Origin: Myxococcota bacterium
GTDB taxonomy: Bacteria; Myxococcota_A; UBA9160; SZUA-336
NCBI GenBank assembly: GCA_965226855.1
Contig: CBDDEE010000024.1
Span: forward strand, 8,971-72,970
Reading direction: 5' to 3'
DNA length: 64,000 nt
This document shows, piece after piece, positions 7,390 to 64,000 of this stretch. Positions within the stretch are counted from its first letter, which is position 1, and each line of letters starts with the position of its first letter. The notes beneath the pieces are model-generated. The model worked only from the letters and a program-made list of their open reading frames with translations, searched no databases and was not told the origin of the DNA. The translations under genes were made by a program, and so were the position numbers.

Positions 7390-7421
7390 GGCGGGCTCAT
7401 GTGGCAAGCTGGCGGGCGCAG

Positions 7422-8420
7422 ATGCGAGCGATGGTGTTGCATGGCCCCGCCCCGATCGAGCGATCGCCGCTCGTCCTCGAGTCCCTTCCGGATCCGGAGC
7501 CGGGTCCGGCCGAGATCCTGGTCGAGGTGTCCACCTGCGGCGTCTGTCGCACCGACCTGCACTTGATCGAGGGCGAGCTCGACCCGGCACGGTCTCGTGT
7601 CGTACCGGGCCATCAAGTCGTGGGAACGGTGGCCGCTCGCGGCTCGGCCGCCACGCGCTTCCCGATCGGGGCACGAGTGGGCGTTGCCTGGCTCCACGAC
7701 ACGTGCCGTGTCTGCCCCTACTGCCAGAGCGGGCGCGAGAACCTGTGCCAGGCGCCGACCTTTACCGGCTGGCACGTCGACGGTGGGTACGCGGAGCGGC
7801 TGACGGTTCCGGCCGCGTACGCGTACGCCATTCCGGAGATCTTCAGCTCCGAAGAGGCTGCCCCTCTGCTGTGCGCGGGCATCATCGGCTACCGCGCGCT
7901 GCGACGCGCCGCGGTGCGGCCCGGCTGCAAGCTCGGCCTGTACGGGTTCGGCTCCTCGGCGCACCTGTCGCTCCAAGTGGCTCGGCACTGGGGCTGCGAG
8001 GTCTACGTCGTGACGAGAGAGGCGTCACACCGCGAGCTGGCGCTTTCGCTCGGTGCGATCTGGGCTGGTGGCGTGAAAGAGGAGCCCCCGTCCGCTCTCG
8101 ACTCGGCCATCAACTTCGCCCCAGTTGGTGAGCTGGTCCCGCTGGCGCTCCGGGCGCTGGGACCCGGGGGAACCCTGGCCTGTGCTGGTATCCACATGAG
8201 CGATGTGCCGGTGCTCCGCTACCAGGGAGAGCTGTTTCAGGAGCGAACCCTGACGAGCGTGACGGCGAACACCCGCCAGGACGGCGAGGAGCTGCTCGCC
8301 GTCGCCTCCGAGATCCCCATCCGACCCGTCACGACCAGCTTCGAGCTAGAGCAGGCGAACGTCGCGCTGCAGCGTCTGAAGCGAGGGGACGTGGTCGGGT
8401 CCGCTGTGCTCCGGCTCTGA
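7422..8420 (+). CDS. zinc-dependent alcohol dehydrogenase family protein
   Basis: MRAMVLHG...[15 protein letters not shown]...PGHQVVG...[15 protein letters not shown] (catalytic and structural Zn ligands). The start is moved to ATG 7422. Confidence 0.8.
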
Positions 8421-8423
8421 TAA

Positions 8424-8444
8424 GTCTTGCGGGTCCCGCGAGAC
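8424..8444 (+). terminator. GC-rich hairpin directly after the ADH stop. Its core, CTTGCGGGTCCCG, resembles the outer arm of the repeat family.
   Basis: gtcttgcgggtcccgcgagac is an imperfect palindrome starting 4 nt after the TGA. There is no clear T-tract. Confidence 0.3.
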
Positions 8445-12459: not shown

Positions 12460-12505
12460 CGGAACTTGGGGACGGTCCTTAATCAGAACTTTTTCTGGTG
12501 GTCCG
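12460..12505. repeat. half copy of the inner arm of the nested palindromic repeat family
   Basis: cggaacttggggacggtccttaatcagaact plus the spacer start matches 62845-62885 with one mismatch in the arm. Confidence 0.7.
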
Positions 12506-12515
12506 GGGAAGCGGG

Positions 12516-12734
12516 CTAGCCTTTGAGTTCCGGGAGAATCTCGTCCGGTTCGGGGAAGCGGCCGGTCTCCGACTTCGAGTAGATCGTGCGTCCGTCGACG
12601 ACGACGTCGAACACGCCGTTGCCCCCGCGAATCAGCTCGGTCTCGACGCCGACTTTCTCCTTGATCGTGGCCGCCAGACTGGTGGCCTGTGGGAGGTAGT
12701 TTCAGGCGCCGCAGTAGGTGATGGAGATGTGCAT
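12516..12734 (-). CDS. SelW/Rdx-family selenoprotein; Sec encoded by in-frame TGA at 12702-12704
   Basis: Own translation: MHISITYCGA-U-NYLPQATSLAATIKEKVGVETELIRGGNGVFDVVVDGRTIYSKSETGRFPEPDEILPELKG-stop. It has a CxxU motif at the N-terminus, the frame stays open after the TGA, and a hairpin lies 15 nt downstream. Confidence 0.8.
12670..12686 (-). promoter_or_regulatory. candidate bacterial SECIS apical hairpin
   Basis: RNA GCCACC-AGUCU-GGCGGC starts 15 nt 3' of the UGA. The loop contains GU, as in the fdhF SECIS. Confidence 0.45.
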
Positions 12735-12788
12735 CGCCAGATCGTACCCCGAGTCGGCAGCACCGGCAAAGGCGCTACCATCCGACGT

Positions 12789-13886
12789 GTGCTGACGGTA
12801 GCCGACTTTCTCGACGCACTCGGTCGGCGTGCGCCGCTCGAGAAGGCGGCGGCCTGGGATCCCGTCGGCCTGCAGCTCGGCGATGCCTCCGCGCGCGTGG
12901 AGCGGGTCGCGTTGTGTCACGAAGTGACCGAGGACGTCGTCGCGCGTCTGGAGCAGGCTCCCGTGGACTTGCTCGTCAGCTACCACCCGTTGCTGTTCCG
13001 AGCCACGAACACGCTCCTCAGTGGAGCGACGCCAGAGGGCAGGACGTTGCGGCTGGCGCGCCGCGGCACCGCGCTCGCCGTGGTCCATACGAGCTTCGAC
13101 ATCGCCGAAGGCGGAACCTCCGACGCGCTGGCGGAGGTGCTCGGTCTGGTGGAGCTCTCCGGCTTTGCCCCCCTGTACGGTCCAGACGTTCTGAAGGTCG
13201 TCACCTTCCTGCCCGCCGAAGCCGCGCCGCCGGTGCTGCAGGCGGTCTCCGCAGCCGGCGCGGGACGGATCGGAAACTACTCGAGCTGCTCCTATCGCTC
13301 CGAGGGGGTCGGAACGTTCTTCGCCGGAGCCGGAACGCAGCCGAGCATGGGCTCGCAGGGACAGCTGAACGAGGAACGCGAGGTGCGGCTCGAATTCGTG
13401 GTGCCGCGTTCCAGGGAGGCTGAGGCGCTCGGAGCGCTCGTGGCGGCGCATCCCTACGAGGAGCCGGCCTACGACGTGTACGAGCGGCGTGGCAACGCCG
13501 GAATGCTCGGACGGATCGGGACTCCCGCCGCGGGGACCACGCTCCAGGGGCTGGCGCAGCGCGCGGCGGAGGAGCTGCGGACGAAGACGCTGCGGCTCGC
13601 TGGCGATCCCGAACGAATTCTCGACCGCGTCGCCGTGATCCCCGGCTCGGGCTCTCCGTTGCTGGACCTGGCTGCGGCGGCGGGAGCGGACGCTGTCGTG
13701 ACGGGCGATCTGGGCCACCACGTTGCGCGAGCGGCCAATGATCGGGGCCTGTGCCTTCTCGATGCTGGACACGTCCCTACGGAGCGCCCCGGACTCGAGC
13801 GCCTGTACGTTGCGCTCGCGGCCCTCGGGGCCGAGACGCTGAGCTTCCTCGACCTCGATCCCGATCCGTGGGCCGCGCCGAGCTGA
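12789..13886 (+). CDS. Nif3-like dinuclear metal centre protein (GTP cyclohydrolase 1 type 2 homologue)
   Basis: LTVADFLDALGRRAPLEKAAAWDPVGLQLGD...LLVSYHPLLF...DAVVTGDLGHH. GTG 12789 is chosen because the upstream part of the track ORF is the antisense of the selenoprotein gene. Confidence 0.75.
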   Translation: MLTVADFLDALGRRAPLEKAAAWDPVGLQLGDASARVERVALCHEVTEDVVARLEQAPVDLLVSYHPLLFRATNTLLSGATPEGRTLRLARRGTALAVVHTSFDIAEGGTSDALAEVLGLVELSGFAPLYGPDVLKVVTFLPAEAAPPVLQAVSAAGAGRIGNYSSCSYRSEGVGTFFAGAGTQPSMGSQGQLNEEREVRLEFVVPRSREAEALGALVAAHPYEEPAYDVYERRGNAGMLGRIGTPAAGTTLQGLAQRAAEELRTKTLRLAGDPERILDRVAVIPGSGSPLLDLAAAAGADAVVTGDLGHHVARAANDRGLCLLDAGHVPTERPGLERLYVALAALGAETLSFLDLDPDPWAAPS

Positions 13887-13887
13887 G

Positions 13888-14682
13888 ATGCCGCGAATCC
13901 TGGACGCGCTGGGCAGGAGCCACGACTTCCAGCGCAACCCGCAGCGAATCGTGTCGCTCGTCCCGTCGATCACCGAGACGCTCTTCGGGCTCGGTCTGGA
14001 TACCGAGATCGCGGGAGTTACAGACTTTTGTGTTCACCCTGCAGAGCGCGTGCGCTCGAAGGTCCGCGTTGGAGGAACGAAGAATCCCTCGCTCGACGCG
14101 ATCCTGGGCCTCGAGCCCGACCTGGTCATCGCGAACAAGGAGGAGAACCGCCGGCGCGACGTCGAGCGCCTGGAAGCCGCGGGGGTACGGGTCTTGGTGA
14201 CCTACGCGCGTACGCTCGCAGAAGCCATTACGGACATCCGAACCCTTGGCGTGGTGACGGGAACCGACCCGGTCGCGGAGGAGATCGCCACTCGAGTCGA
14301 GCGCGCGCGAGCAGCGATCACCCCGCGCGAGCACGGGGACCGCGTGGCGGCCCTCATCTGGAAGCGGCCCTACATGGCGGTTGGCGGGGATACCTTTGCG
14401 CACGATCTCATGCGGGTCTGCGGTGGGGTGAACTGCTTTGCCGGCAGGGAGCGCTACCCGCGCATCGACGCGCATGCGCTCGAGGAAGCAGCTCCGGAAG
14501 TGATCCTGCTGCCCACGGAGCCGTACTGCTTCGGCGAGTTCGATCGAGACGAGCTCCTGCAGCTCGATTGCGCCGCAGCTCGCAGCGGCAGGGTCCACGT
14601 GATCGAGGGCGAGCTGCTCAGCTGGTACGGCCCACGCATGGAGCGCGCGCTGCAGACGCTCTCGCGGCTGATCGCTCCCTGA
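13888..14682 (+). CDS. BtuF-like cobalamin/metal-binding protein (ABC-type periplasmic binding protein fold), with no obvious signal peptide
   Basis: PQRIVSLVPSITETLFGLGLDTEIAGVTDFC...DLVIANKEEN... Confidence 0.65.
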   Translation: MPRILDALGRSHDFQRNPQRIVSLVPSITETLFGLGLDTEIAGVTDFCVHPAERVRSKVRVGGTKNPSLDAILGLEPDLVIANKEENRRRDVERLEAAGVRVLVTYARTLAEAITDIRTLGVVTGTDPVAEEIATRVERARAAITPREHGDRVAALIWKRPYMAVGGDTFAHDLMRVCGGVNCFAGRERYPRIDAHALEEAAPEVILLPTEPYCFGEFDRDELLQLDCAAARSGRVHVIEGELLSWYGPRMERALQTLSRLIAP

Positions 14683-14895
14683 CTTGTGGGACCCAGGGCG
14701 CGGGCGCCCGCGCCCTTCCCACCTCCGCTCAGTCTAGGGCCTTCGCTGCGCGCACCGCTTCGCGGTGCTTGCAGGGTTGCCACTCTTGTGGGACCCGGCG
14801 CGCGAGCGGTCGCGCGCCACCCACCTTCGCTCAGGTCTAAGGCCTTCGCTGCGCGCACCGCTTCGCGGCGCTTGCAGGTTGCCTGCAAGTCCCGC
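14683..14895. repeat. two tandem units of about 100-110 bp from the outer arm of the palindromic repeat family
   Basis: Unit 1 is 14683-14784 and unit 2 is 14785-14895. Both begin CTTGTGGGACCC and share ...GGCCTTCGCTGCGCGCACCGCTTCGCGG(T/C)GCTTGCAGG... Confidence 0.75.
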
Positions 14896-14899
14896 CTAG

Positions 14900-16170
14900 C
14901 AGGCTGCGGAGAAAGTGACTGGGTTGGGCGGGACGCCTCTGACGGGAGGCGTGCCGAGCAGGGAGAGGGATCGCCGTTCCCGGTACGAACCGGTTCGGTG
15001 TCGCACGGGTAGATCTTGCGGGATCATGAGCTATGTCGCCTCCAACAGGTTGCGGATACGGACCAGGTTGTAGGCCGCAGCAGTGAAGGTGAAGACCCAG
15101 CCGACCCGATCCGTGCCCCGGTGCCGGGTCTTGCGCATCAAGCCCACCGTCTTCATCCAGCCAAACACCTCCTCCACCCGTTTGCGGAAGCGCTGGCTCA
15201 CCTCGTAGCCCGGGTGTCCTGTGGTCCTTCGATCGATCGCGCTTCGGCGGTTCGTCGTGTTCTGTGCCACGTGCGGGGTAACGCTCCAGGCCCGAAGCGC
15301 CTGCACAAAGCTCTTGGCGTCGTAGCCCTTGTCTCCAGCCAGGGTGATCCGGCGAGCGCCCCCCAGACCCAGCACCATCTCGAGAGCCGCTTCGCGCTCC
15401 GCATACCCCGACGCCTGAGTGAGCTTCGCCGCCACCACCAGGCCGTTGCGGTTCTCCGTCACGACGTGTCCCTGATACGCGAGCCGCGCGCCCTGGCCCC
15501 TCATCCCCGCCAGTCGGGCGTCCGGATCCGTCCTCGACGCATGCGTCTGGTTGCTCCGCTTCTCGCCCCGGAAGTTGACCGTCGGGTTGCCCGGGTCGTC
15601 ATCGTCCCTGCGCTTCTCGTCCTTGCGCACGAAGCTCTTCTGGCTCGCCCACGCCTCGATCAGCGTCCCGTCCACCGTGAAGTGCTCCGATGACACCAAC
15701 CCCTCCGACTCCGCCTGCGCCAGCACCGCCTCGAAGAAATGCTGAGCGATCTCGCCCTTCAGCAGCCGTTCCCGATTCTTGGTGAACACCGTCGCGCTGA
15801 ACACCTCATCGTCCAGCTCCAGGCCCACGAACCAGCGGTAGAGCAGGTTGTAGTCGATCTGCTCGATCAGCTGGCGCTCGCTCCGGATCGTGTACAGCAC
15901 CTGCAACAGCAGCGCCCGCAACAGCTGCTCCGGCGGGACCGACGGTCGGCCGACCCCTTTGGCGTAGATACCATCGAAGCGTCGCGACAGCTGCTCCAGC
16001 GCCGCGTCCACCAGTCGCCGGATCGCTCGAAGCGGATGGTCCTCGGGAATCCGGGACTCCAGCGATACGTAGCTGAAGATCCCACCCTGGAGCGTCTGCG
16101 GTCCTCTCACATCTCCCCCTTGGGGCTTCCCTCAAAGGTACCCTTCGATGAGGAGTTTTTCAGCAGCCTG
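14900..16170 (-). mobile_element. IS5-family insertion sequence (about 1.27 kb) flanked by a duplicated CTAG
   Basis: Single DDE transposase ORF. Terminal inverted repeats are CAGGCTGCGGAGAAAGT (left) and CAGGCTGCTGAAAAACT (right, reverse complement). CTAG lies at 14896-14899 and 16171-16174. The flanks GTCCCGC / GCGGGAC extend the perfect inverted match to 19 bp (14889-14907 vs 16163-16181). Confidence 0.75.
15031..16110 (-). CDS. IS5-family DDE transposase
   Basis: N-terminus QGGIFSYVSLESRIPEDHPLRAIRRLVD (InsH-type N-terminal domain). The DDE region has FTVDGTLIEAWAS...TLAGDKGYD...RKRVEEVFGWMK. Confidence 0.85.
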   Translation of the reverse strand: MRGPQTLQGGIFSYVSLESRIPEDHPLRAIRRLVDAALEQLSRRFDGIYAKGVGRPSVPPEQLLRALLLQVLYTIRSERQLIEQIDYNLLYRWFVGLELDDEVFSATVFTKNRERLLKGEIAQHFFEAVLAQAESEGLVSSEHFTVDGTLIEAWASQKSFVRKDEKRRDDDDPGNPTVNFRGEKRSNQTHASRTDPDARLAGMRGQGARLAYQGHVVTENRNGLVVAAKLTQASGYAEREAALEMVLGLGGARRITLAGDKGYDAKSFVQALRAWSVTPHVAQNTTNRRSAIDRRTTGHPGYEVSQRFRKRVEEVFGWMKTVGLMRKTRHRGTDRVGWVFTFTAAAYNLVRIRNLLEAT

Positions 16171-16174
16171 CTAG

Positions 16175-16248
16175 GCGGGACGCGCAGTGAGGCGAAGCCG
16201 AACGGAGAGTGGGTGGCGCGCGACCGCTCGCGCGCCGGGTCCCACAAG
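16175..16248. repeat. inverted copy of the outer arm of the palindromic repeat family (right flank of the IS)
   Basis: Its reverse complement, tcttgtgggacccggcgcgcgagcggtcgcgcgccacccac, is identical over about 41 bp to 14784-14824. Confidence 0.75.
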
Positions 16249-22679: not shown

Positions 22680-22710
22680 GTAGAACTTGGGAACGGTCCC
22701 CAAGTTCTAC
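22680..22710. repeat. short palindromic member of the repeat family (GTAGAACTTGGG-aacggtc-CCCAAGTTCTAC); probable terminator
   Basis: 12-bp perfect stem. It contains the TAG stop (22707-22709) of the carboxyltransferase gene and shares the GAACTTGGG..CCCAAGTTC core with 62847-62925. Confidence 0.6.
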
Positions 22711-24263
22711 GGGCGGACGGTGTAAGAGCGGGGGCCGAGGTGTTGTTCCAGGTGGGGCTGGATCCATTCGATCCAGTTGCAAAGGGCCGGGCGGGTGGTG
22801 CGGGGGTCGATCAGGTCCGAGACGCCGAAGCCCTCGGCACGCGCGTAGGGGGAGCGGCGGCTCGCGAGCTGCTCTTCGAGCTCGCGGCGCTTGGCTTCGG
22901 GATCGGGGGCGGCGGCGATCTCGCGGCGGAAGGCGACGGCGACTCCACCCTCGAGCGGTAACGCGCCGGACTCGGCAGACGGCCAGGCCAGCGTGTGTCC
23001 GTACGGTCCGAAGTGTGCGCCGCCGGCCACGCCGAAGGTCTTGCGCACCATGACCGTGGCCCAGGGGATGGTCGACTGCATGATCGCGAACAGGGTGGCG
23101 GTCCCGTAGCGAATCGTGGCCGAGCGCTCGGCCTCCGGGCCGATCATGAAGCCGGGCTCGTCGGCAAGGCTCACGATCGGCAGGTGGAACGTGTCGCACA
23201 GGTCGACGAAGCGCGTCACCTTCTGAGAGCCCGCCGCCGTCATGGCACCCGCGTAGAAGTAGGGGTCGTTCGCGAGCACCCCGACCGGCTGGCCGTTCAT
23301 GCGCGCCAGGCCGGTGATCTGGCTCTGGCCGTAGCCTGCCGACATCTCGAAGAAGCTGCCTCGGTCGACGAGGAGCTCGATGATCCTGCGCATCTTGTGG
23401 GGCTTGCGGCGCTCCCGGGGGACGATGGACAGGAGCTCTTCCTCGCAGCGGTCCGACGGGTCGTCGCAGCTCAAAACGGGAGCACGTTCCCAGATGTTTG
23501 TCGGCAGATAGCTCAGAAAGCGCCGGGCCTGCTCGAAGACGCCGCGCTCGTCGGGAGCCACGTTGTCGACCACGCCGCTCTTCAGGTGCACCTGCGGGCC
23601 GCCGAGCTCTCCCTTGGAGAGCGAGTGTCCCGTAGCGCGCTCGACGAGCGCAGGGCCGCCAACCATCACCTGGGCCGTGTCCCTGGCCATGATGGAGAGA
23701 TGGGAGGCAACAAGCCGCGCGGCTGGAAGACCCGCGACGGCCCCCATGGCACCGGAGACCACGGGCACCATCCCCATCGCACGCATCACGCTCATGAACC
23801 GCGGCGGTGTCGCTGGCGATTCGACGGTAGCCGCGGAGGTCGGTCCCCGTGCCGGGGCCACGCTGCCGCCACCTCCCTCGAGGAACCGAACCAGCGGCAC
23901 GCGGTAGCGGCAGGCGAGCTCTTCCGCCATCACGGACTTGCGGAAGCCCGCGGGAGAGGGCGAGCCCCCGCGCAGTGTGAAGTCTTCGCCGCCCACGGCG
24001 ACGAGGCGTCGATCGATACGCCCGAGGCCGAGTACGTAGTTCGCCGGACTGAAGTCGATCAGCTCACCCCCGTCATCGAGCTCGGGCACGCCCGCGATCG
24101 GCCCCTGCTCCTGGAACGTGCCGGGGTCGAGCAGGCCATCGATGCGCTCGCGAATCGTCAGCTTGCCCCGCTCGTGCTGGGCTGCGACCGCCTCGTCCCC
24201 GCCCTGCAGAAGAGCGAGCCGACGGCGTTGCTCGATTCCGTCCACCTCGGGCTTCCAGCTCAT
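22707..24263 (-). CDS. acyl-CoA carboxylase carboxyltransferase subunit (propionyl-CoA carboxylase beta family)
   Basis: MSWKPEVDGIEQRRRLALLQGGDEAVAAQHERGKLTIRERID...GGEDFTLRGGS...ANDPYFYAGAM...; start reassigned to ATG 24263. Confidence 0.85.
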   Translation of the reverse strand: MSWKPEVDGIEQRRRLALLQGGDEAVAAQHERGKLTIRERIDGLLDPGTFQEQGPIAGVPELDDGGELIDFSPANYVLGLGRIDRRLVAVGGEDFTLRGGSPSPAGFRKSVMAEELACRYRVPLVRFLEGGGGSVAPARGPTSAATVESPATPPRFMSVMRAMGMVPVVSGAMGAVAGLPAARLVASHLSIMARDTAQVMVGGPALVERATGHSLSKGELGGPQVHLKSGVVDNVAPDERGVFEQARRFLSYLPTNIWERAPVLSCDDPSDRCEEELLSIVPRERRKPHKMRRIIELLVDRGSFFEMSAGYGQSQITGLARMNGQPVGVLANDPYFYAGAMTAAGSQKVTRFVDLCDTFHLPIVSLADEPGFMIGPEAERSATIRYGTATLFAIMQSTIPWATVMVRKTFGVAGGAHFGPYGHTLAWPSAESGALPLEGGVAVAFRREIAAAPDPEAKRRELEEQLASRRSPYARAEGFGVSDLIDPRTTRPALCNWIEWIQPHLEQHLGPRSYTVRP

Positions 24264-24308
24264 GCGGGGGGATACTAACGGCTCTGCTACTCTGCCGTCG
24301 GGGGAAGC

Positions 24309-25712
24309 ATGATGGCGCAGCTCGAGCAGGCCCACGAGGCGCTGGAGCAGGGCTTCGATCGAGCGTTCGCGCAGCTGTGCGAGCTTGCTCGCATTCCGGG
24401 TGTGTCCGCAGCGGGCTTCGACCCGTCGCAGGTGGCGCGTTCTGCGGACGCAGTAGCTGAGCTGCTGAAGGAGACGGGGCTTTCGAAGGTGGAGCTCCTG
24501 CGGCTCCGCGGCGCCCACCCCTACGTCGTCGGAGAGCGCGCGGACCACGGACCCGATGCGACGACCGTGCTGATCTACGCGCATCACGACGTTCAGCCCC
24601 CGGGGCGTCCTGAGCTGTGGGAATCGCCGCCCTTCGAGCCTACCTACCGCGGGGACGGTCGCCTGTACGGGCGCGGAGTGGTGGACGACAAGGCGGGGCT
24701 GATGCTGCACCTGGCGGCGCTGCGCGCGTGGCTCGAGTCGAGCTCCGAGCTTCCGACGAACGTCAAGCTGATCGTCGAGGGCGAAGAGGAGATCGGCTCT
24801 CCGCACCTCGCGGAGTTTCTGCACGCTCACCGCGAACGTCTCTCCGCCGACGTGATCATCCTCTCGGACACTGCGAACCTGGAGACGGGCCTGCCCTCGC
24901 TCACGACGAGCCTGCGCGGTCTCGTTGCGGTGGACGTGACCGTGCGTGCCCTGGACCACGCGATCCACAGCGGCATGTGGGGTGGTCCGGTTGCAGACAC
25001 GGCAACCTGTCTGGTTCGCGTGTTGGCGCGTCTGGTGGACGACCGCGGTGTGATTCAGGTGCCCGGGATCTACGACGACGTCGACGTGTTGGACGGGCCC
25101 GAACGCGAGCGGATCGCCCGCCTGCCGTTCGACGCAGCGCGCTTCAGAGACGAAGCCGGACTGGTCGCGACTGGAGATTTCACTGGCGAGAGCGAGTACT
25201 CGGTGTGGGAGCGTCTCTGGTGGCGGCCCAGTCTCGCGATCACCGCCCTGGAGGGCGTGTCGTTGCAGGGCGCTGCGAACCAGCTCATGGACGTTGCGCG
25301 CGCCCGAGTCGGGCTGCGCCTTGCCCCCGGTCAGGACCCGACCCGCGCCGCAGGGCTGCTCCGCGAGTTCCTCGAACGTGACCCGCCCGGAGGGGTGCAG
25401 GTGGAGACGCAGGTCGAGGCTGTAGCTGGCGGGTGGCGAACGCAGCCGCGGGGTCCGGCGTTCGACGCGGCCCGGCGGGCGCTAGCTGCCGGCTTCGGCC
25501 GCGAGCCCGTCGAGATCGGCTGCGGGGGCACGATCCCCTTCGTGGGCCCATTCAGCGAGGTGCTCGGCGGGGTGCCGGCCTTGCTCCTCGGACTCGAGGA
25601 CCCGATCTGCAACGCGCACGGAGAGAACGAGAGCCTCGACACGGCGGACTTCCGTCGCGCGGCGCGAGCCTCCGTTCACCTGCTCCAGGAGCTGGCTTCG
25701 CTCAAGCGCTGA
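24309..25712 (+). CDS. M20-family metallopeptidase (dipeptidase/ArgE/DapE-like)
   Basis: YAHHDVQP...GRGVVDDKAG...IVEGEEEIGS motifs. Confidence 0.8.
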   Translation: MMAQLEQAHEALEQGFDRAFAQLCELARIPGVSAAGFDPSQVARSADAVAELLKETGLSKVELLRLRGAHPYVVGERADHGPDATTVLIYAHHDVQPPGRPELWESPPFEPTYRGDGRLYGRGVVDDKAGLMLHLAALRAWLESSSELPTNVKLIVEGEEEIGSPHLAEFLHAHRERLSADVIILSDTANLETGLPSLTTSLRGLVAVDVTVRALDHAIHSGMWGGPVADTATCLVRVLARLVDDRGVIQVPGIYDDVDVLDGPERERIARLPFDAARFRDEAGLVATGDFTGESEYSVWERLWWRPSLAITALEGVSLQGAANQLMDVARARVGLRLAPGQDPTRAAGLLREFLERDPPGGVQVETQVEAVAGGWRTQPRGPAFDAARRALAAGFGREPVEIGCGGTIPFVGPFSEVLGGVPALLLGLEDPICNAHGENESLDTADFRRAARASVHLLQELASLKR

Positions 25713-47591: not shown

Positions 47592-47637
47592 CGGTGGTTC
47601 CAACAGGACATGAATCTGTGTCTCCAGGGGTGTGAAC
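47592..47637 (-). repeat. degenerate copy of the 3' half of tRNA-Glu (att-like remnant)
   Basis: Own alignment against 48893-48937 gives about 37 of 46 positions identical, in the same orientation. The 5' half of a tRNA is absent. Confidence 0.65.
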
Positions 47638-48892: not shown

Positions 48893-48968
48893 TGGTGGTC
48901 CCAACGGGATTTGAACCCGTGTCTCCAGGGTGAGAACCTGGTATCCTAAACCCCTAGACGATGGGACC
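48893..48968 (-). tRNA. tRNA-Glu (anticodon CUC), CCA encoded
   Basis: GGTCCCATCGTCTAGGGGTTTAGGATACCAGGTTCTCACCCTGGAGACACGGGTTCAAATCCCGTTGGGACCACCA. Cloverleaf has a 7-bp acceptor stem, anticodon stem CCAGG/CCTGG and loop TTCTCAC. Confidence 0.9.
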
Positions 48969-56551: not shown

Positions 56552-57826
56552 GTGCCTCCCCGCCTGACGACCCGGACGATCGAGCTGCGTCGCGTGGTGG
56601 TCACGGGGATGGGAACCGTGAACCCGCTCGGCAACGATGTGGCAACGACCTGGAACGCGTTGCTCAAGGGGAGCTCGGGCATCGCGCGGGTCGAGGGCTT
56701 CTCGACAGACGACTGCAGCGCGAAGATCGCGGGCCAGCTCAAGGGCTTCGACCCGCTCACAGTGATGGACAAGAAAGAGGTGCGACGCCTCGACCCCTAC
56801 CTGCAGTTCTCGATGGCGGCGGCGGTCGAGGCGATTCGGGACTCGGGCTTCGAGGTGACTGAGGACGAGGCCGACAGGACGGGTGTTCTCGTCGGTTCCG
56901 GCATCGCGGGACTGATGACCATGCTGGACAACTGCGAGACGCTGCTCACTCGCGGACCGATGAAGATCTCACCCTTCTTCGTTCCCAGTGCGATCGCGAA
57001 CATGGCCTCGGGCCTGATCTCCATACGCTACGGGGCGCGCGGACCCAACTCCTGCGTCGTCACGGCATGCACGACGGGCACCCATGCCATCGGGGACGCC
57101 GCGCGCATCATCCAGCGCGGCGAAGCGGACGTGATGATCGCGGGCGGTGGCGAGGCGCCCGTGAACCGGCTCGGGCTCGGCGGCTTCGGCACGATGCGGG
57201 CGCTGTCGACGCGCAACGACGATCCGGAGCGTGCCAGTCGGCCCTTCGACCTGGGTCGGGACGGCTTCGTCTGTGCCGAAGGCGCCGGAGTGGTAGTGCT
57301 CGAGAGCCTGGAGCACGCGCTGCGGCGTGGGGCTCGGATCCACGCCGAGATCGTGGGCTACGGGATGTCCGCAGATGCCCACCACATGACCGCCCCGCCC
57401 GAGAACGGCGTGGGCGCACAGCTCGCGATGCGCAAGGCGCTCGCGGATGGGGACCTCGCTCCTGGGGACGTCGACTACATCAACGCTCACGGGACCAGCA
57501 CCCAGTACAACGACAAGATCGAGACCTACGCGATCCGCCAGGTCTTCGGAGAGCATGCAGACGAGCTCGCGGTCTCGTCGACCAAGTCGATGACCGGCCA
57601 CGCGCTCGGAGGCGCCGGCGGCATGGAGGCCATCTTCACGATCCTGACGGTTCGAGAAGGTAAGATCGCCCCGACCATCAACTACACCGACCCGGATCCG
57701 GACTGCGATCTCGACTACGTGCCGAACGTGATGCGCGAGATCCCAGTACGGGTGGCGCTGTCGAACTCCTTCGGGTTCGGCGGCACGAACGGAGCGCTGG
57801 CGATCGCTCGCTACGATGAGGAGTAG
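56552..57826 (+). CDS. fabF: 3-oxoacyl-ACP synthase II
   Basis: [15 protein letters not shown]...ACTTG...NAHGTST...NSFGFGGTN. Confidence 0.9.
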
Positions 57827-57859
57827 TGCTACGTTATCGGGCACTCGGGGGGTGACGGG

Positions 57860-59104
57860 GTGAGCCTGCGAGACGCGGATCCGGAGATCGCGGCGGCGAT
57901 CGAGGGTGAGATCGAGCGGCAGCAGTCGAGCATCGAGCTGATCGCGAGCGAGAACTTCACCTCGCCGGCGGTGCTCGCGGCGATGGGAACGCCGCTCACG
58001 AACAAGTACGCCGAGGGCTACCCCGGCAAGCGCTATTACGGCGGCTGCGAGTTCGTCGACGTCGCGGAGAATCTTGCGATCGAGCGAGCCAAGCGGCTGT
58101 TCGGCTCGGACCACGCGAACGTGCAGCCGCACTCAGGCTCGGCAGCGAACATGGCCGCTTACTTCGCGCTGCTAAAGCCCGGCGACACGATCCTCGGCAT
58201 GGAGCTCAGCCACGGCGGCCACTTGACACACGGCTCGCCCGTGAACTTCTCGGGCCAGCTGTTCGAGTTCATGCGCTACGGCGTGGCGGAGGGTGACCAG
58301 CGCATCGATTACGACCAGGTACGCGACCTGGCGCGGCGGCACCGCCCCAAGATGATCCAGTGCGGCTACAGCGCCTACTCACGGACCATCGACTTCGAGG
58401 CTTTCGGTGAGATCGCGCGAGACGTGGGCGCCGTACTGTTCGCCGACATCGCGCACATCGCTGGACTGGTCGCGGCTGGCGTGCACCCCTCGCCCACCGG
58501 GCAGGCCGGTGTGGTAACCACGACCACGCACAAGACCCTGCGCGGACCCAGGGGGGGCCTGATCCTGTGCGACGCAGAGCACGCCGACGCGATCGACCGG
58601 GCAGTGTTCCCGCTGACTCAGGGCGGCCCGCTCGAGCACGTGATCGCAGCCAAGGCAGTGGCCCTGGAGGAGGCGAGCCAGCCCGACTTCAAGGCCTACG
58701 CCGAGCAGATCGTCGGCAACGCCCGAGCCCTGGCGGGGCGCATGCTCGAGCGCGGCTTCCGGGTCGTCTCCGGCGGGACCGACAACCACCTGTTCGTTCT
58801 CGACTTTCGCGACCGGGATCTGTCGGGGCTCAAAGCCCAGAGACGTCTCGACCGGGCCGGGATTACCGCGTCCAAGAGCACCGTTCCCGGCGAGGAGCGT
58901 TCTCCGTGGGTCACGAGCGGGCTGCGCGTGGGGACCCCCGCCATCACCACCCGTAATATGGGTGTGGCGGAGATGCTGCAGATCGCCGACTGGATGGCGG
59001 ACGTCCTCGAGAGCCCCGACGACGAGCAACTCCAGGTGCGCGTCAAGGCCTCGGTCGCGGAGGTCTGCGAGCGCTTTCCCCTCCCGTACACCCCGCCCGA
59101 ATAG
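57860..59104 (+). CDS. glyA: serine hydroxymethyltransferase
   Basis: [15 protein letters not shown]...[16 protein letters not shown]...[14 protein letters not shown]. Confidence 0.95.
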
Positions 59105-59118
59105 AGGAGCCGAGGGAC

Positions 59119-59580
59119 TTGCGTTGCCCGTTCTGTGATCACCCCGACACCAAGGTGATCGACGCCCGGAATCAGCGCGACGCCCCGGTCAAGCGGCGCC
59201 GCCGCGAGTGCTCGGAGTGCGGTAGGCGCTTTACGACGTACGAGCGCATCGAGGATCTACTACCTCTCGTCGCCAAGCGCGACGGCCGCAGGGAGGCTTT
59301 TGATCGGCTGAAGATCGTCCAGGGTCTGCAGAGGGCCTGCGAGAAACGACCGGTCAGTGCGAATGCGGTCCAGGAGGCGGTCCAGCGCATCGAGCGTGTG
59401 ATCCTGGACCTCGGCGAGCGCGAGGTGCCGACCACGCGCATCGGGGACGAGGCGCAGCTCGAGCTGCGCGCGCTGGATCCGGTCGCCTGGCTGCGCTTCA
59501 CCTCCGTCTACCTCGGCTTTCGCACGATCGAGGAGTTCCGGGACGCGCTCGACGACATCGACCCCGCGCAAAGTGGGTAG
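59119..59580 (+). CDS. nrdR: transcriptional repressor NrdR
   Basis: MRCPFCDHPDTKVIDAR...CSECGRRFTTYE zinc ribbon plus an ATP-cone. TTG start. Confidence 0.9.
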   Translation: MRCPFCDHPDTKVIDARNQRDAPVKRRRRECSECGRRFTTYERIEDLLPLVAKRDGRREAFDRLKIVQGLQRACEKRPVSANAVQEAVQRIERVILDLGEREVPTTRIGDEAQLELRALDPVAWLRFTSVYLGFRTIEEFRDALDDIDPAQSG

Positions 59581-60685
59581 GACGGGGTCGACGCGCGAAG
59601 CAGACCGGGTCTTCATGCGTGAGGCGCTACGGCTGGCTGCACGCGCCAGCGGGAGGACGGCTCCGAATCCGCTCGTGGGCAGCGTGGTCGCCCGGGGCGG
59701 ACGGCGCATCGCGCGCGGCTACCACACCCGCGCCGGTCATCCGCATGCCGAGGCCGTGGCGCTTGCGCGAGCCGGGGGGGCCGCGCGGGGAGCCACGCTC
59801 TATGTGACGCTGGAGCCCTGTGCGCACACCGGTAGTACACCTCCTTGTGTCGATGCGGTGCTGGCGTCGGGCGTCCGCAGGGTGGTCGTCGGCATGAGAG
59901 ATCCGGATCCGCGAACCTCGGGCAAGAGCATCCGCAAGCTGCGCCGGGCCGGCTTAACGGTCGAGGTGGGCGCGCTTGCGGAGGAGTGCAGGCGTCTAAA
60001 CGCCGGCTTCGTGTCGCGCATCGAGCGGGGGCGCCCCTTCACCACGCTGAAGCTCGCGGCCAGTTTCGACGGGCGGATCGCGACGGCGCGCGGCGAGTCG
60101 CGCTGGATCAGCGGACCCCGCTCCCGCGCGTTCGTCCAGCAGCTGCGCGGAAGGGTGGACGCCATCGCGGTCGGCTCCGGGACCGTGGTCGCCGATGACC
60201 CCTCGCTCACCCAGCGGAGCGGCGCGCGGGTCCTGCACCGCCCGACCCGGATCGTCGTCGACTCGAGGCTGCGCACTCCCGCCAACGCGCGCCTCATCGA
60301 TCCCGAGCACCCGGGGAGCGCCTGGATCCTCACCGCGAGCGACGCCGCCCCGCGGAAGCGCCGGCAGCTCGAACGGGCGGGTGCGAGGCTCGTCAACGTG
60401 CGCGCCCGGGGGCGGTCACTCGACCTGCGCGACGCCTGGCGCAAGCTCGGACGCCTCGGCGTGAACGACCTGCTGGTCGAGGGGGGAGGCGGGCTCGCTG
60501 CCGCGTTGCTGCGCGCTGGCCTCGTCGACCGGATGCATCTCTTTCTCGCTCCGCTCTTCATCGGCTCCGACGGAAAGCCACTGATCGGTGAGCTCGGAGT
60601 GGAGCGCTTGAAACAAGCGCTCCACCCGCGCACAGTTGCTAGCCGTAAGCTTGGAGACGACCTTCTCGTGACGGCAGAGTGGTAA
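59573..60685 (+). CDS. ribD: bifunctional riboflavin biosynthesis deaminase/reductase RibD
   Basis: PNPLVGSVV...HAEAVAL...LEPCAHTGSTPPC, then a reductase domain. Confidence 0.9.
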   Translation: MGRTGSTREADRVFMREALRLAARASGRTAPNPLVGSVVARGGRRIARGYHTRAGHPHAEAVALARAGGAARGATLYVTLEPCAHTGSTPPCVDAVLASGVRRVVVGMRDPDPRTSGKSIRKLRRAGLTVEVGALAEECRRLNAGFVSRIERGRPFTTLKLAASFDGRIATARGESRWISGPRSRAFVQQLRGRVDAIAVGSGTVVADDPSLTQRSGARVLHRPTRIVVDSRLRTPANARLIDPEHPGSAWILTASDAAPRKRRQLERAGARLVNVRARGRSLDLRDAWRKLGRLGVNDLLVEGGGGLAAALLRAGLVDRMHLFLAPLFIGSDGKPLIGELGVERLKQALHPRTVASRKLGDDLLVTAEW

Positions 60686-60689
60686 GGCG

Positions 60690-61166
60690 ATGCGAACCAT
60701 CGAGACGAAGCTTGCCGGTGAGGGCATGCGCATCGGCGTGGTCGTCGCCCGCTTCAATCACATGATCACGCGTCGCCTGCTCGAGGGCTGCGAGCTACGC
60801 CTGCGCGAGCTCGGCTGTGAGGAGACGGAGGTGATGTGGGTGCCCGGGGCTTTCGAGGTGCCGCTCGGCGCACAGCAGGCTGCCCGGAGTGGACGCTACG
60901 ATGCGCTCATCGCTATCGCCGTGATCGTGCGGGGCGATACCCCGCACTTCGATTACGTCTGCCGGGGAATCACGGACGGCGTTCGACAGGTCGGCATGGA
61001 GCACGCCATCCCGGTGGCGTTCTGTGTGCTCACCACCGAGACGGTGCAGCAGGCGCTGGCGCGGGCGGCCGCACCCGGCGAGCATGGCGTGAACAAGGGC
61101 GTCGAGGCGGCCGAGGTCGCGGTCGAGATGACGAGCTTGCTGAGAGCCCTGGAGAAAGGAGCTTGA
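60690..61166 (+). CDS. ribH: 6,7-dimethyl-8-ribityllumazine synthase
   Basis: RIGVVVARFNHMIT...VPGAFEVP...GDTPHFDYV. Confidence 0.9.
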   Translation: MRTIETKLAGEGMRIGVVVARFNHMITRRLLEGCELRLRELGCEETEVMWVPGAFEVPLGAQQAARSGRYDALIAIAVIVRGDTPHFDYVCRGITDGVRQVGMEHAIPVAFCVLTTETVQQALARAAAPGEHGVNKGVEAAEVAVEMTSLLRALEKGA

Positions 61167-61168
61167 CC

Positions 61169-61603
61169 GTGGGAAGTCACGGCCCGCGCAGGATGGCACG
61201 CGAGACGGCACTCCAGGTGCTGTTTGCCGCTGACCTGTCCGGCGAGGTGAACCTGGCGAGCGTCGAGACCTGCTTCGAGGAGGTCGCGCGAGAGTTCTCG
61301 TTGCCCGGCCGGGCACGGCAATGGGCCCAGGAGCTCGCGCGAGGCGTGGCCGAGCATCTGAAGCAGATCGACGAGAACATCGGCCGCGCCAGCACGAACT
61401 GGCAGGTCCACCGCATCGCCAACGTGGACCGCAACATCCTCCGGGTCGCCACATACGAGCTGCTACGAGACGAGACGCCGACCGAAGTGATTATCGACGA
61501 GGCGGTCGAGATCGCGAGGCGCTTTGCCAGCGAGACGTCACCGGCGTTCGTGAACGGCGTGCTCGACGTGCTCGGGCGCGAGCGCGCAGCGGCCCGGCTC
61601 TGA
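61169..61603 (+). CDS. nusB: transcription antitermination factor NusB
   Basis: RRMARETALQVLFAADL...NILRVATYELL...FVNGVLD. GTG 61169 lies 7 nt after GGAGAAAGGAG (alternative start ATG 61193). Confidence 0.85.
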   Translation: MGSHGPRRMARETALQVLFAADLSGEVNLASVETCFEEVAREFSLPGRARQWAQELARGVAEHLKQIDENIGRASTNWQVHRIANVDRNILRVATYELLRDETPTEVIIDEAVEIARRFASETSPAFVNGVLDVLGRERAAARL

Positions 61604-61752
61604 GCAGACCTGTCTTCTCCGGCGCGCGACGTCATACGACAGCTCTCCACAGAAGCGGCAGCCAGTGAACCCGACCGCTGTCGTCGCGTAAAGGGGCCCC
61701 CTGTATGGACCGATAACTCCGGTGCTTCGCTCCGACGCGAGCAGGAGGCGCG

Positions 61753-62771
61753 ATGATCGCCCTGTGCCCGAAGTGCAAGACCCGCTATCGACTCGCCCCT
61801 GAGAAGGTGGGTCCGCAGGGTGTGCGCATCCGCTGCTCCAAGTGCAAGACCGTGTTCCGCGTGCAGGCGCCGAAGCGTGCTGAGCCCGCAGCCGGCCAGC
61901 AAGCGCAGCCTAGCCCGCAGCCCGCGCCGAGCGCCCCCGCAGACAGGTACGTCGCACATGCGCTCGTGGCCGAGGCCGATGCCGAGGTGGCGAAGCGAAT
62001 CGCGAGCACTCTGCGCCGTTGGAAGGTCCAGGCCGAGGTAGTCGCCGACGGGGGGCAGGCGCTGCTGCGGCTGTTCCGCAAGACTCCCGACCTCGCTATT
62101 CTCGGCGGGCACCTGCCCGGCGTGAGCGCCCCGGTCATTGCCGAGATCGCCCGGCGCGCAGAGAATCTGCGGGTCATCCCGCTGATCCGCATTGCTCCGA
62201 TGGACGAGCCCGCGGGCGCGCCGGAGTTCGAGGCGAACGAGGTGCTCGAGCCCGGGGAGGTCGGGGAGCGCCTTGGTGCGGTGCTGCGCCGTCTCGCCAT
62301 CGGCCAGTCTCCGTCCCCGAGGCAGATACCGACAAGCTGCCCGTGGAGCTCCCGCAGCAACCTGCAGTCGCCGAGTCCGCAGCCGCGCCGCCCCTGCCGC
62401 CGCCGACCCCCTTGCCGACGCCGGAGACCGCCGCACCCGATCCCGGGCCCCCCAGACCTGCGGACGCCGAGCCGGACCTGCCGCAGCCCGCTGCGCGCAA
62501 GCCGCGAAAGCAGGCAAACGCCTCCGCCTCCGACGACCCGGCGATCGTTTCCGCAGAGCGCCTCGCCCGCATCGCGGTGTCCGACATCATCCTCTACAAC
62601 GAGGAGAAGTTCGCAAAGGGCGTGAGCGAGGGAAACGTGGCAGCCAGTCTCGAGCCCGAGCTCGCGGAGGCGCGCCATCTCTTCGAGCAGCGCATTCCGG
62701 AGGAGATCCGCAACCTGCGCGACTTCCTGGTCGAAGAGCTCGAACGCCGCGTCGCCGCCAGGTCCGCCTGA
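61753..62771 (+). CDS. MJ0042-type zinc-ribbon protein with a receiver-like domain, Pro-rich linker and conserved helical C-terminus; apparent 1-nt frameshift at C-run 62315-62318
   Basis: MIALCPKCKTRYRLAPEKVGPQGVRIRCSKCKTVFRV. The receiver-like part is ALVAEADAEVAKRIASTLRRW...DLAILGGHLPGVS. The C-terminus is in the other frame: ...AERLARIAVSDIILYNEEKFAKGVSEGN...IRNLRDFLVEELERRV. Confidence 0.65.
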
Positions 62772-63004
62772 CTTGCGGGTCCCGGCGCGCGAGCGGTCGC
62801 GCGCCACCCGCTCTCCGTTTGCCTAAGGCTCACCGCGCGGAAGTCGGAACTTGGGGACGGTCCTTAATCGGAACTTCTTGGTCCGCTCGAGGAGTTAGTT
62901 CCGATTGAGGACCGTCCCCAAGTTCCGTGCCCTTTGGGACTTGCAGGCAACATGCGAGCGCCGCGAACCCGGCGCGCGACCGCTCGCGCGCCGGGTCCCG
63001 CAAG
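62772..63004. repeat. intact nested palindromic intergenic element (233 bp), reference copy of the repeat family
   Basis: Outer 34-bp inverted repeats CTTGCGGGTCCCGGCGCGCGAGCGGTCGCGCGCC (62772-62805) and its complement (62971-63004) have 1 mismatch. Each contains its own 9-bp hairpin. Inner 31-bp arms 62845-62875 / 62897-62927 have 1 mismatch and a 21-nt spacer. Confidence 0.85.
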
Positions 63005-63034
63005 ACCAGACCCACAAGACTATACTCCCGCCCC

Positions 63035-64000
63035 GTGGGCATCCTGATCATCGGGGGCGGGGACATCGGGGCTACGCTCGCGCGGCGCCTGTCGTCCGAG
63101 CGCAAGGACGTCGTCATCATCGAGAGCGACGTGGAGCGCGTGCCGCAGCTGCGTGACGTCGCAGACGTCCAGGTCGTGCATGGAAACGGCTCTAACCCCT
63201 CGGTGCTGCGCTCGGCCGGTCTGGAAGACGCCGAGATGATCATCGCTGTGACGAACTCCGACGAGATCAACATTGTCTCGTGCATGGTCGCGTCGCACGA
63301 GACCGTGATTCCGACGAAAATCGCCCGGGTGCGCGATCCGGACCTGGCGCAGGCGGTGCCCGCTATCTTCGGCGACGACCCGCTGGACCTGAACATCAAT
63401 CCCGAGGAAGAAGCCGCACAGATCGTTCTGAAGACACTGCGTGTCCCGGGGGCGGTCCGCGTGTTCGAGTTTGTCGAGGGGCGCGTTCAGGTGGTCGCCT
63501 TTGCCCTGGACGCGGAGAGCGAGGTCGTGGACACCCCGCTCTACGACGTCAAGACGCGCCTCGGGATCGACTGCAACGTCGTGGCGATCCTGCGCGACGG
63601 CCAGATGCTCATTCCGGAGGGGAAGACGCGGATCTGCCTGGGCGATCAGCTGTACGCCGCCGGCAGCCCAGCGGCACTCGGTAAGCTCGCGGAGCTTCTT
63701 GGCAAGCCCGACGTCGACGTGCGCCGCATCGTGATCAGCGGCGGCGGAAACATCAGCTACTACCTCGCGCGGATGCTCGAAGCCGAAGACATCGTGCCGA
63801 AGATCATCGAGTCGGACCCGCAGCGGTGCAAGTATCTCGCGGAGAGACTCGAGCGCAGCGTCATCCTGCAGGGCTCAGGCACGGATCCGGAGCTGCTGCG
63901 CGAGGAGAGCATCGAGACGACGGACGCCTTCCTCGCGCTGACCCGCGACGAGGAGGACAACATCCTCGCCTCCCTGCTCGCGAAGCGCTCGGGAGCGGGC
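63035..64000 (+). CDS. trkA: Trk system potassium uptake protein TrkA (3' end beyond the window)
   Basis: Own translation from GTG 63035: GILIIGGGDIGATLARRLSSERKDVVIIESD...second RCK-N repeat RRIVISGGGNISYYLARMLE... The frame is open to the window edge, so it is not in the ORF track. Confidence 0.85.
   Translation, partial: MGILIIGGGDIGATLARRLSSERKDVVIIESDVERVPQLRDVADVQVVHGNGSNPSVLRSAGLEDAEMIIAVTNSDEINIVSCMVASHETVIPTKIARVRDPDLAQAVPAIFGDDPLDLNINPEEEAAQIVLKTLRVPGAVRVFEFVEGRVQVVAFALDAESEVVDTPLYDVKTRLGIDCNVVAILRDGQMLIPEGKTRICLGDQLYAAGSPAALGKLAELLGKPDVDVRRIVISGGGNISYYLARMLEAEDIVPKIIESDPQRCKYLAERLERSVILQGSGTDPELLREESIETTDAFLALTRDEEDNILASLLAKRSGAG

Follow-up and report, generated by a model that had tools for sequence, protein, structure and literature searches.

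The spacer between a zinc-ribbon gene and trkA in the 64,000-nt stretch of Myxococcota bacterium DNA analysed here (contig CBDDEE010000024.1; the window) contains a palindromic element at 62772-63004. With a probability of about 0.7, we assign it, as a decayed copy, to a non-coding repeat system that is specific to a small uncultured Myxococcota clade and spread in the manner of repetitive extragenic palindromic (REP) sequences and of REPINs, their inverted doublets. The system combines a module of about 90 nt, here called U, with a second element nested at the centre of composite copies. It is a new lineage-restricted family of a known type, with modules resembling REPs, REPINs and bacterial interspersed mosaic elements (BIMEs) and a nested element resembling a miniature inverted-repeat transposable element (MITE), and not a new kind of system. 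This supports the original prediction, made from the window alone, of a dispersed REP/BIME- or MITE-like family with an architecture beyond that of a simple REP; the architecture is modular and nested.

The element upstream of trkA is a composite of inverted modules

The spacer extends over 263 bp (62772-63034), from the TGA of the zinc-ribbon gene (62769-62771) to the GTG start codon of trkA at 63035. The palindrome occupies 233 of these positions and a partial head copy (63005-63020) a further 16 bp. The original prediction had treated the spacer as one large palindrome of 233 bp with nested arms, and the arms were confirmed as described: the outer arms (62772-62805 and 62971-63004; 34 nt) and the inner arms (62845-62875 and 62897-62927; 31 nt, enclosing a 21-nt loop) are each 97% complementary with 1 mismatch, and each outer arm includes its own hairpin, GGCGCGCGA-GCGG-TCGCGCGCC. 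However, the segments between outer and inner arms (62806-62844 and 62928-62970) lack complementarity to each other, which implies that the element is a composite of inverted modules rather than a single clean palindrome. Alignment of 62772-63004 to its own reverse complement gave a gapped identity of 73%.

The 22-nt hairpin produced eight strand-matches in the window compared to 0.02 expected; since it is palindromic, these represent four sites counted on both strands. The inner arm occurred three times, with 0 occurrences expected. Prediction of the fold, proposed originally as a check, yielded z = -12.9 (RNA) and z = -12.2 (DNA) for a 242-nt stretch relative to shuffled sequences.

When compared to full-length copies from other loci, 62772-63004 reads as a decayed, internally deleted derivative of a composite of about 470 bp, in which the inner core and portions of both U units are gone. 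The left U unit begins immediately 3' of the zinc-ribbon gene TGA, and its CCCGC (62807-62811) closes a helix with GCGGG of the head. In the miniature inner element (62845-62927) about 130 nt of the full-length core are deleted. The tail piece of the inverted right U unit (62936-62967) matches 14862-14893, part of another copy in the window (Table 1).

Outside the repeat, a -10-like box is located 8 nt 5' of the trkA GTG at 63021-63026, reading TATACT in the window and TATAAT in a related species (locus L020). It hints at a near-leaderless trkA transcript, for which the -35 region would lie inside the repeat head. A consensus scan of 62600-63150 detected no full promoter and no terminator-like site on either strand.

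U consists of three hairpins maintained by compensatory changes

Alignment of 51 distinct units defined the anatomy of U, in which a head, CTTGYGGGACCC, is followed by three hairpins rich in GC and the sequence GCTTGC forms the tail. Hairpin 1 is variable in sequence with a stem that is almost always fully paired; besides the form in the trkA spacer it includes GGCCGCGG-GCGT-CCGCGGCC and a longer form that harbours another hairpin. The CCCRC motif following hairpin 1 pairs back to GYGGG of the head, with the variable position being T..A in 39 units, C..G in 9 and broken in 3. The small hairpin 2 (AGGCC..GGCCT or AGGGC..GCCCT) is followed by CGCTGCGCGC, and hairpin 3 (GCCGCG-TTC-CGCGGC) directly precedes the tail.

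RNAalifold predicted 27 base pairs in U, 10 of which are associated with compensatory changes. In the stems, 98.2% of the cells were paired, and the values lay above those of every slid control. None of 500 shuffles matched the observed values for four of the five pairing measures, and 83 of 500 did so for the remaining one, the count of further pair types. A subfamily of U, shared with a third metagenome-assembled genome (MAG), carries an extra palindromic block of about 30 nt (CCTCCCGCGGGTCAGCGACCCGCGGGCCGCTGACGG) within hairpin 1, forming a hairpin in a hairpin on a smaller scale.

U units form arrays, inverted pairs and composites with a nested inner element

U units were found singly, in direct tandem, preceded by 5' partial heads, as inverted pairs and in composites of about 470 bp, with single units and direct tandem arrays being far more numerous than composites. 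Array periods were 76, 87-92 and 102 nt, mostly not multiples of three, and the longest direct tandem comprised up to six units with a 76-nt period (L047, 6742-7229). Inverted pairs were present in at least 12 clusters. One to three reiterated partial heads (CTTGYGGGACCCGGCnnnn; 9-21 nt) stand 5' of full units. The orthologous trkA sites of the two species are not alike in the number of these heads, which could stem from slippage or from aborted insertions.

Four full composites (L011, 6260-6757; L058, 230-734; L042, 916-1329; L015, 2796-3235) align end to end. Their common layout is U, a linker, an inverted repeat of about 36 bp (GGAATCCGAACTTGGGGACGGTCCTTAATCCGAACTT), a conserved non-palindromic core of about 100-130 nt, the second inverted repeat, a linker and an inverted U, and conserved linkers such as GGTTGCCAAGCCCCGTAGGAGGTTGCCGGTTCT recur in mosaic clusters. 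The window copy and the copies at L019 and L018 are progressively deleted forms of this composite. The inner element, of about 215 bp and with ~36-bp inverted repeats, occurs in both orientations, in miniature forms, as solo arms and also away from U. The inner palindrome at trkA is the inverted-repeat pair of this separate MITE-like element.

The inner arms (12462-12487; 62847-62872, plus strand; 62900-62925, minus strand) read GAACTT-N15-TC(A/G)GA, and in solo arms a T-run follows. The motif GAACTT-N15-TCNGA resembles the promoter consensus of RpoE/AlgU-type extracytoplasmic function (ECF) sigma factors. In the window, GAACTT-N15-17-TCNGA was present only inside repeat arms, with no independent instance, and thus provides no independent evidence of a regulon. 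Two of four solo inner arms point at a gene start and one into a gene end, the fourth being not assessable.

The family is genome-wide in a narrow clade

A 20-nt head pattern was scanned over 185,579 species genomes and retrieved 72 stretches, 37 of them (40 exact matches) from the MAG CBDFGR01 ('Myxococcota bacterium', three contigs, 5.2 Mb); the remaining matches were single chance occurrences in unrelated taxa. The U profile detected 75 copies in the 37 CBDFGR01 stretches (296 kb), four to five in the window, one in each of two contigs of the third MAG, Deltaproteobacteria bacterium CSMAG_3071, and none in about 30 unrelated loci having the head pattern only. Further copies outside the window, which the original prediction had made its test, are thus plentiful in one related MAG. 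The family, with profile copies in three related genomes, is therefore genome-wide yet restricted to a narrow clade. In a JGI metagenome scan the inner arm was detected in two contigs only. A phage or plasmid origin was rejected, as neither plasmids nor viral contigs contained a match. Integron attC sites were likewise rejected: the CTTGY copies of head and tail share one orientation instead of being inverted, the genes nearby have housekeeping roles, and no integrase was found among the genes inspected.

The orthologous trkA locus of the related MAG (L020), whose flanking genes are 86-91% identical, contains both outer arms and two complete U units, lacks the inner element and carries two extra partial heads after the stop codon. 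Because L020 keeps the arms and differs in the centre, we conclude that this site has been occupied since before the species split and that its interior was remodelled.

Collapsed or chimeric repeats in the metagenome assembly might produce similar patterns. Short-read Logan contigs of the same organism indeed end inside repeats (L001 stops at 12491; L076 spans 12462-14813), with breaks in the repeats at 12460-12494 and 14797-14818 as is typical of multi-copy repeats in assembly graphs, and the window differs from another assembly by a homopolymer indel in the adjacent gene. However, the ENA contig L077 (2.70 Mb) matches 56690-64000 at 99.97% and includes an identical 62772-63004 element, the element at 14.7 kb is identical in a third assembly lacking the insertion sequence (IS) described below, the orthologous locus of the other species has the same arms, and dozens of copies reside in different unique contexts. 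The orthologous arms, the IS-less allele and the independent contig effectively refute an artefact, which had been named originally as one of two outcomes that would overturn the prediction, and we consider its probability negligible. The indel itself is in the zinc-ribbon gene (61753-62771), where the window reads CCCC at about 62315 and L077 CCCCC, splitting a 339-aa open reading frame (ORF) into two frames; this probably reflects an assembly error in the homopolymer and not a true frameshift.

Heads are enriched immediately downstream of stop codons

Gene positions were derived from rough GC-frame gene calls, a procedure that misses some genes; by these calls, 4 of 58 clusters lie inside a gene. 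The stop codon of a coding-looking ORF on the same strand was located at most 45 nt upstream of 30 and at most 7 nt upstream of 22 of the 60 heads that come first in their cluster, compared to baselines of 7.6% and 1.5% at non-coding positions of the same loci (p about 3e-18 and 6e-25, respectively). The TGA-CTTG junction, which had been pointed out at two copies of the window, is a property of the whole family. The register between stop and head varies (TGA-CTTG, TAGt-CTTG, TGAgt-CTTG), and in a few copies the stop is within a variant head, e.g. CTAG or ATAG. Gene ends were faced by heads 28 times and by tails 7 times, and at 11 places, trkA among them, a head faced a gene start. Of the cluster ends, half are not directed at a gene end. 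At gaps of 0-7 nt the GYGGG/CCCRC helix would start 3-10 nt and hairpin 1 12-19 nt after the stop codon.

For Escherichia coli, Liang, Rudd and Deutscher (2015; cited in PMC12306157) reported that 260 of 496 REPs are at most 15 nt away from a stop codon, and that REPs at this distance stall ribosomes and lower translation. The stop-adjacent placement of U matches this behaviour of E. coli REPs.

Origin and possible function of U

In the REP/REPIN-like scenario that we favour, U units would have been copied around the genome and subsequently rearranged. They may have spread at the DNA level by a route that depends on hairpins and creates no target duplication, and would persist where they are least harmful, immediately 3' of stop codons. 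Within the transcript of the upstream gene, U would form very stable stem-loops, which could, like E. coli REPs, impede decay from the 3' end or read-through, and a U hairpin at most 15 nt from the stop may stall terminating ribosomes. Such effects on the upstream transcript could be incidental or selected.

Several observations weigh against this scenario. The copy counts for CBDFGR01 rest on loci picked for containing the head pattern. A phmmer search for REP-associated tyrosine transposases (RAYTs) or other Y1 transposases among ORFs of at least 70 aa in about 0.45 Mb, with IS200 TnpA and E. coli YafM queries, returned a best E of 1.6, a weak negative from a rough screen of repeat-enriched sequence that amounts to far less than 10% of either genome. 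U units were not seen to be polymorphic in presence or absence, so that their mobility is inferred from distribution only. U lacks the GTAG or CGTC tag of REPs, since it starts with CTTGYGGGACCC and its hairpins are flanked by ACCC and GCGC; GTAG begins only the marginal hairpin at 22680. Stem mismatches (7 G-U, 12 A-C) are not biased towards the sense strand, which gives no specific sign of selection as sense RNA and is equally well explained by constraint at the DNA level. Finally, no U-tract follows the hairpins, as ACCCAC succeeds hairpin 1 and GCTTGC hairpin 3 in the consensus, and U hairpins do not qualify as intrinsic (Rho-independent) terminators.

U might be a true REP/REPIN mobilised by a RAYT, i.e. 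a single-copy HUH tyrosine transposase that mobilises units or inverted doublets after recognising hairpin 1 in single-stranded DNA. The perfect hairpins kept by compensatory change, the lack of target duplications, the REPIN-like coexistence of inverted doublets, tandem arrays and singlets, and the GTAG of one inner-type hairpin (22680) agree with this, whereas the untagged head, a unit of about 90 nt with three hairpins that far exceeds a 20-40-nt REP, and the Y1 search speak against it, making this mechanism possible but doubtful. Alternatively, the ~470-bp composite and the ~215-bp inner element could be classical MITEs, derived by deletion from an IS with a DDE transposase and moved in trans via their terminal inverted repeats, with solo U units as broken halves; the ends of the partner IS would then match GAACTTGGGGACGGTCC or the U head. 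Composites with inverted ends of about 90 nt and an asymmetric core conserved in at least five copies fit such elements, as do the inverted repeats, double orientation, miniature versions and solo ends of the inner element. Yet no target-site duplications were found around composites, inner elements or single units, with boundaries set by the family alignment only and without an empty site. In the sampled loci no transposase is bracketed by inner arms or by U heads, and the sole IS present has unrelated ends. Moreover, single units and direct tandems outnumber composites by far, and the compensatory variation of the U hairpins would not be needed in inverted repeats that bind a transposase. 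We therefore consider a MITE origin of the whole family unlikely.

The placement of heads raises the question whether U is primarily a selected cis-regulatory RNA (a terminator, 3'-end stabiliser or stop-proximal stalling hairpin), as opposed to selfish DNA, that spread through recruitment by many genes. This idea draws on the extreme enrichment in fixed orientation within 7 nt of stops, the retention at an orthologous site with 86-91% identical flanks, the very stable predicted folds and the precedent of stop-proximal REPs named above. It is improbable given the lack of a U-tract or terminator-like site, the unbiased G-U and A-C mismatches, the cluster ends, half of the total, that are directed elsewhere than at a gene end and the 11 heads facing gene starts, as well as the random deletions within copies and the tandem arrays with as many as six units, which resemble neutral repeat dynamics. 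Furthermore, Rfam 15 at gathering score detected two tRNAs only in the whole window, and its best sub-threshold matches over the repeats had E = 0.47 and 0.82. Very unlikely, in our estimation, is a mobile class that inserts or is selected within a few nt of stop codons by a non-RAYT mechanism and provides many genes with a stop-proximal hairpin tuning termination, ribosome release or mRNA decay, with inner arms that might add ECF-sigma-type promoters. If the inner arms did so, composites and solo arms would rewire transcription.

Other copies in the window and an IS5-family insertion

The second composite of the window is split by an IS. U unit 1, with the variant hairpin 1 AGGGCGCG-GGCGCC-CGCGCCCT, lies directly 3' of the TGA of a periplasmic-binding-protein gene (13888-14682), and the head of U unit 3 is 31 nt from the stop codon of an isochorismatase/nicotinamidase-family gene. 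The transposase ORF of the IS matches Pfam DUF772 and DDE_Tnp_1, and the IS has inverted repeats CAGGCTGCGGAGAAA / TTTTTCAGCAGCCTG and a duplicated CTAG at 14896-14899 and 16171-16174. Its removal predicts the palindrome GTCCCGC-CTAG-GCGGGAC, which is present exactly so in L075, a 22-kb contig of the same species from another assembly. The DDE transposase, the inverted repeats, the 4-bp CTAG duplication and the empty site in another strain are those of an IS5-family element. As the IS-less allele is intact, 14683-14895 and 16175-16248 form one composite (U, U, centre, inverted U) between convergent genes. The tandem and inverted units listed for these positions in the original prediction thus exist, but as one IS-split element and not as separate places.

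The IS does not belong to the family whose repeat it interrupts; its absence from L075 marks it as a strain-level insertion polymorphism. A second copy, 83.5% identical, resides in the related MAG (L055, 1504-2785) at CTAG/CTAA beside a gene stop and outside any repeat. This indicates CTAG rather than the repeat as the target, and targeting of the repeat by the IS was rejected. An exact-protein look-up of the transposase found no record, probably due to a differing start call.

Three further sites had been listed as parts of the same element. The inner-arm half copy at 12460 was recovered as a solo arm, whereas the collapsed hairpin at 22680-22710 and the short core at 8424-8444 proved to be marginal members, both adjoining a stop codon: the terminal GTAG of the former holds the TAG of the minus-strand gene 22707-24968, and the head CTTG of the latter begins 5 nt after the TGA (8418-8420) of ORF 7380-8420.

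Table 1. Repeat modules and the associated insertion sequence (window coordinates unless a locus is named; E values are those of the profile searches)
Feature	Position	Strand	Remarks
Left U unit, truncated, without hairpin 3	62772-62839	+	nhmmer U profile, E = 1.2e-9; sequence; alignment to full composites
Left U unit, head CTTGCGGGTCCC	62772-62783	+	
Left U unit, hairpin 1	62784-62805	+	
Miniature inner MITE-like element	62845-62927	+	two 31-nt inverted arms, 21-nt loop
Right U unit, inverted, internal deletion	62936-63004	-	head and hairpin 1 at 62971-63004
Reiterated partial head GTCTTGTGGGTCTGGT (minus strand)	63005-63020	-	resembles the 19-21-nt head 'stutters' 5' of many units of the related MAG
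U unit 1 of tandem pair	14683-14784	+	E = 9e-17; match extent 14683-14772
U unit 2 and linker	14785-14895	+	E = 3e-23; match extent 14785-14875; ends GTCCCGC, the left half of the centre palindrome
U unit 3, short variant, inverted	16175-16248	-	E = 2.7e-13; match extent 16173-16248
IS5-family insertion sequence	14896-16174	-	body 14900-16170 (1271 bp); transposase ORF 15031-16110
Solo inner-element arm, then T-run	12460-12494	+	divergent intergenic region
31-nt palindrome GTAGAACTTGGGAACGGTCCCCAAGTTCTAC, marginal member	22680-22710		E = 0.13-0.29; resembles collapsed inner arms
Head-like palindrome GTCTTGCGGGTCCCGCGAGAC, marginal member	8424-8444	+	undetected by profile
Partial-head sites	L020 5733-5772; L021 1917; L038 5731; L058 230; window 63005-63020		
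Subfamily with extra block in hairpin 1	L026 499; L047 6742; L053 3265; L057 6754; L058 734; L060 2716; L064 7219; L066 2777; L072 6030; L036 4800-4900		

Apart from these repeats, a degenerate copy (84%) of the 3' half of tRNA-Glu(CTC) was observed at 47593-47629 (compared to 48894-48930), 1.3 kb from the gene and within a stretch of lower GC content (44-50 kb, GC 0.63-0.65). It could be an integration remnant; no integrase ORF was found near it.

Significance

The analysis defines a repeat family of an uncultured Myxococcota clade by its unit, sub-modules, profile and coordinates, and literature searches on myxobacterial REPs or MITEs yielded no description of such repeats. In this clade, short-read assemblies break at the repeats, long ORFs arise spuriously, and MAGs become harder to bin and annotate. 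Their nested insertions and the IS insertion with its matching empty site are useful strain markers. The tight, oriented placement at stop codons independently echoes that of E. coli REPs; if an action on translation or mRNA ends were shown, this would favour the view that stop-proximal hairpins are a general bacterial device and not an enterobacterial oddity. Beyond these points, the repeat family is an ordinary kind of genome feature.

Comparison with known repeat classes

REPINs are inverted REP doublets that form hairpins and show compensatory changes, tandem arrays, nested insertions and decaying singlets (PMC3116915), and one end of the REP palindrome is marked by a conserved tetranucleotide, GTAG or CGTC (PMC3733652). 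U shares with them a high-copy, extragenic and GC-rich nature, palindromes kept by compensatory change, inverted doublets folding into a larger hairpin, tandem arrays, insertions in or beside resident copies, decaying singlets, the lack of target duplications and the location of many copies at most 15 nt from a stop. It thus has both the many extragenic palindromic copies of REPs and the hairpin-forming inverted doublets with compensatory changes of REPINs. In contrast to the 20-40-nt REP palindrome, U spans about 90 nt with three hairpins and a long-range helix, has neither the tag nor sequence similarity, and commonly forms direct tandems and head 'stutters'.

The U family also shares intergenic mosaic clusters of few palindromic units and conserved linkers with the BIMEs of E. 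coli. According to Gilson, Bachellier and co-workers, BIMEs are reportedly mosaic clusters of palindromic units with conserved linkers, often situated where transcription units end. The units within a BIME alternate in orientation, whereas U forms direct runs of up to six, and only the U family has a second, unrelated inverted-repeat element nested at its centre.

Correia/CREE elements of Neisseria, ERIC/IRU of enterobacteria and BOX of Streptococcus pneumoniae are 100-500 bp long, have inverted ends, form hairpins when transcribed and include forms with internal deletions; the modular BOX elements vary in how many internal modules they hold, and Correia elements duplicate a TA target. Like MITEs, the inner element (by its ~36-bp repeats) and the composite (by its inverted U ends of about 90 nt) have inverted ends, are shorter than 600 bp and are non-coding. 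They differ from Correia-type MITEs in lacking a direct target-site duplication, in their high GC content and in being limited to one Myxococcota clade.

Mycobacterial interspersed repetitive units (MIRUs) are said, following Supply and colleagues in 1997, to be units of 50-100 nt that form intergenic direct tandem arrays of fixed orientation and abut the upstream stop codon. U resembles them as a short, direct-tandem intergenic unit of a high-GC genome that abuts the upstream stop in a fixed orientation. However, MIRUs contain short ORFs that couple translation between genes and are not dominated by hairpins, whereas U periods are mostly not multiples of three and inverted pairs of U are common. 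Altogether, every property of the U family, taken singly, is already known from REPINs, BIMEs, MIRUs or bacterial MITEs.

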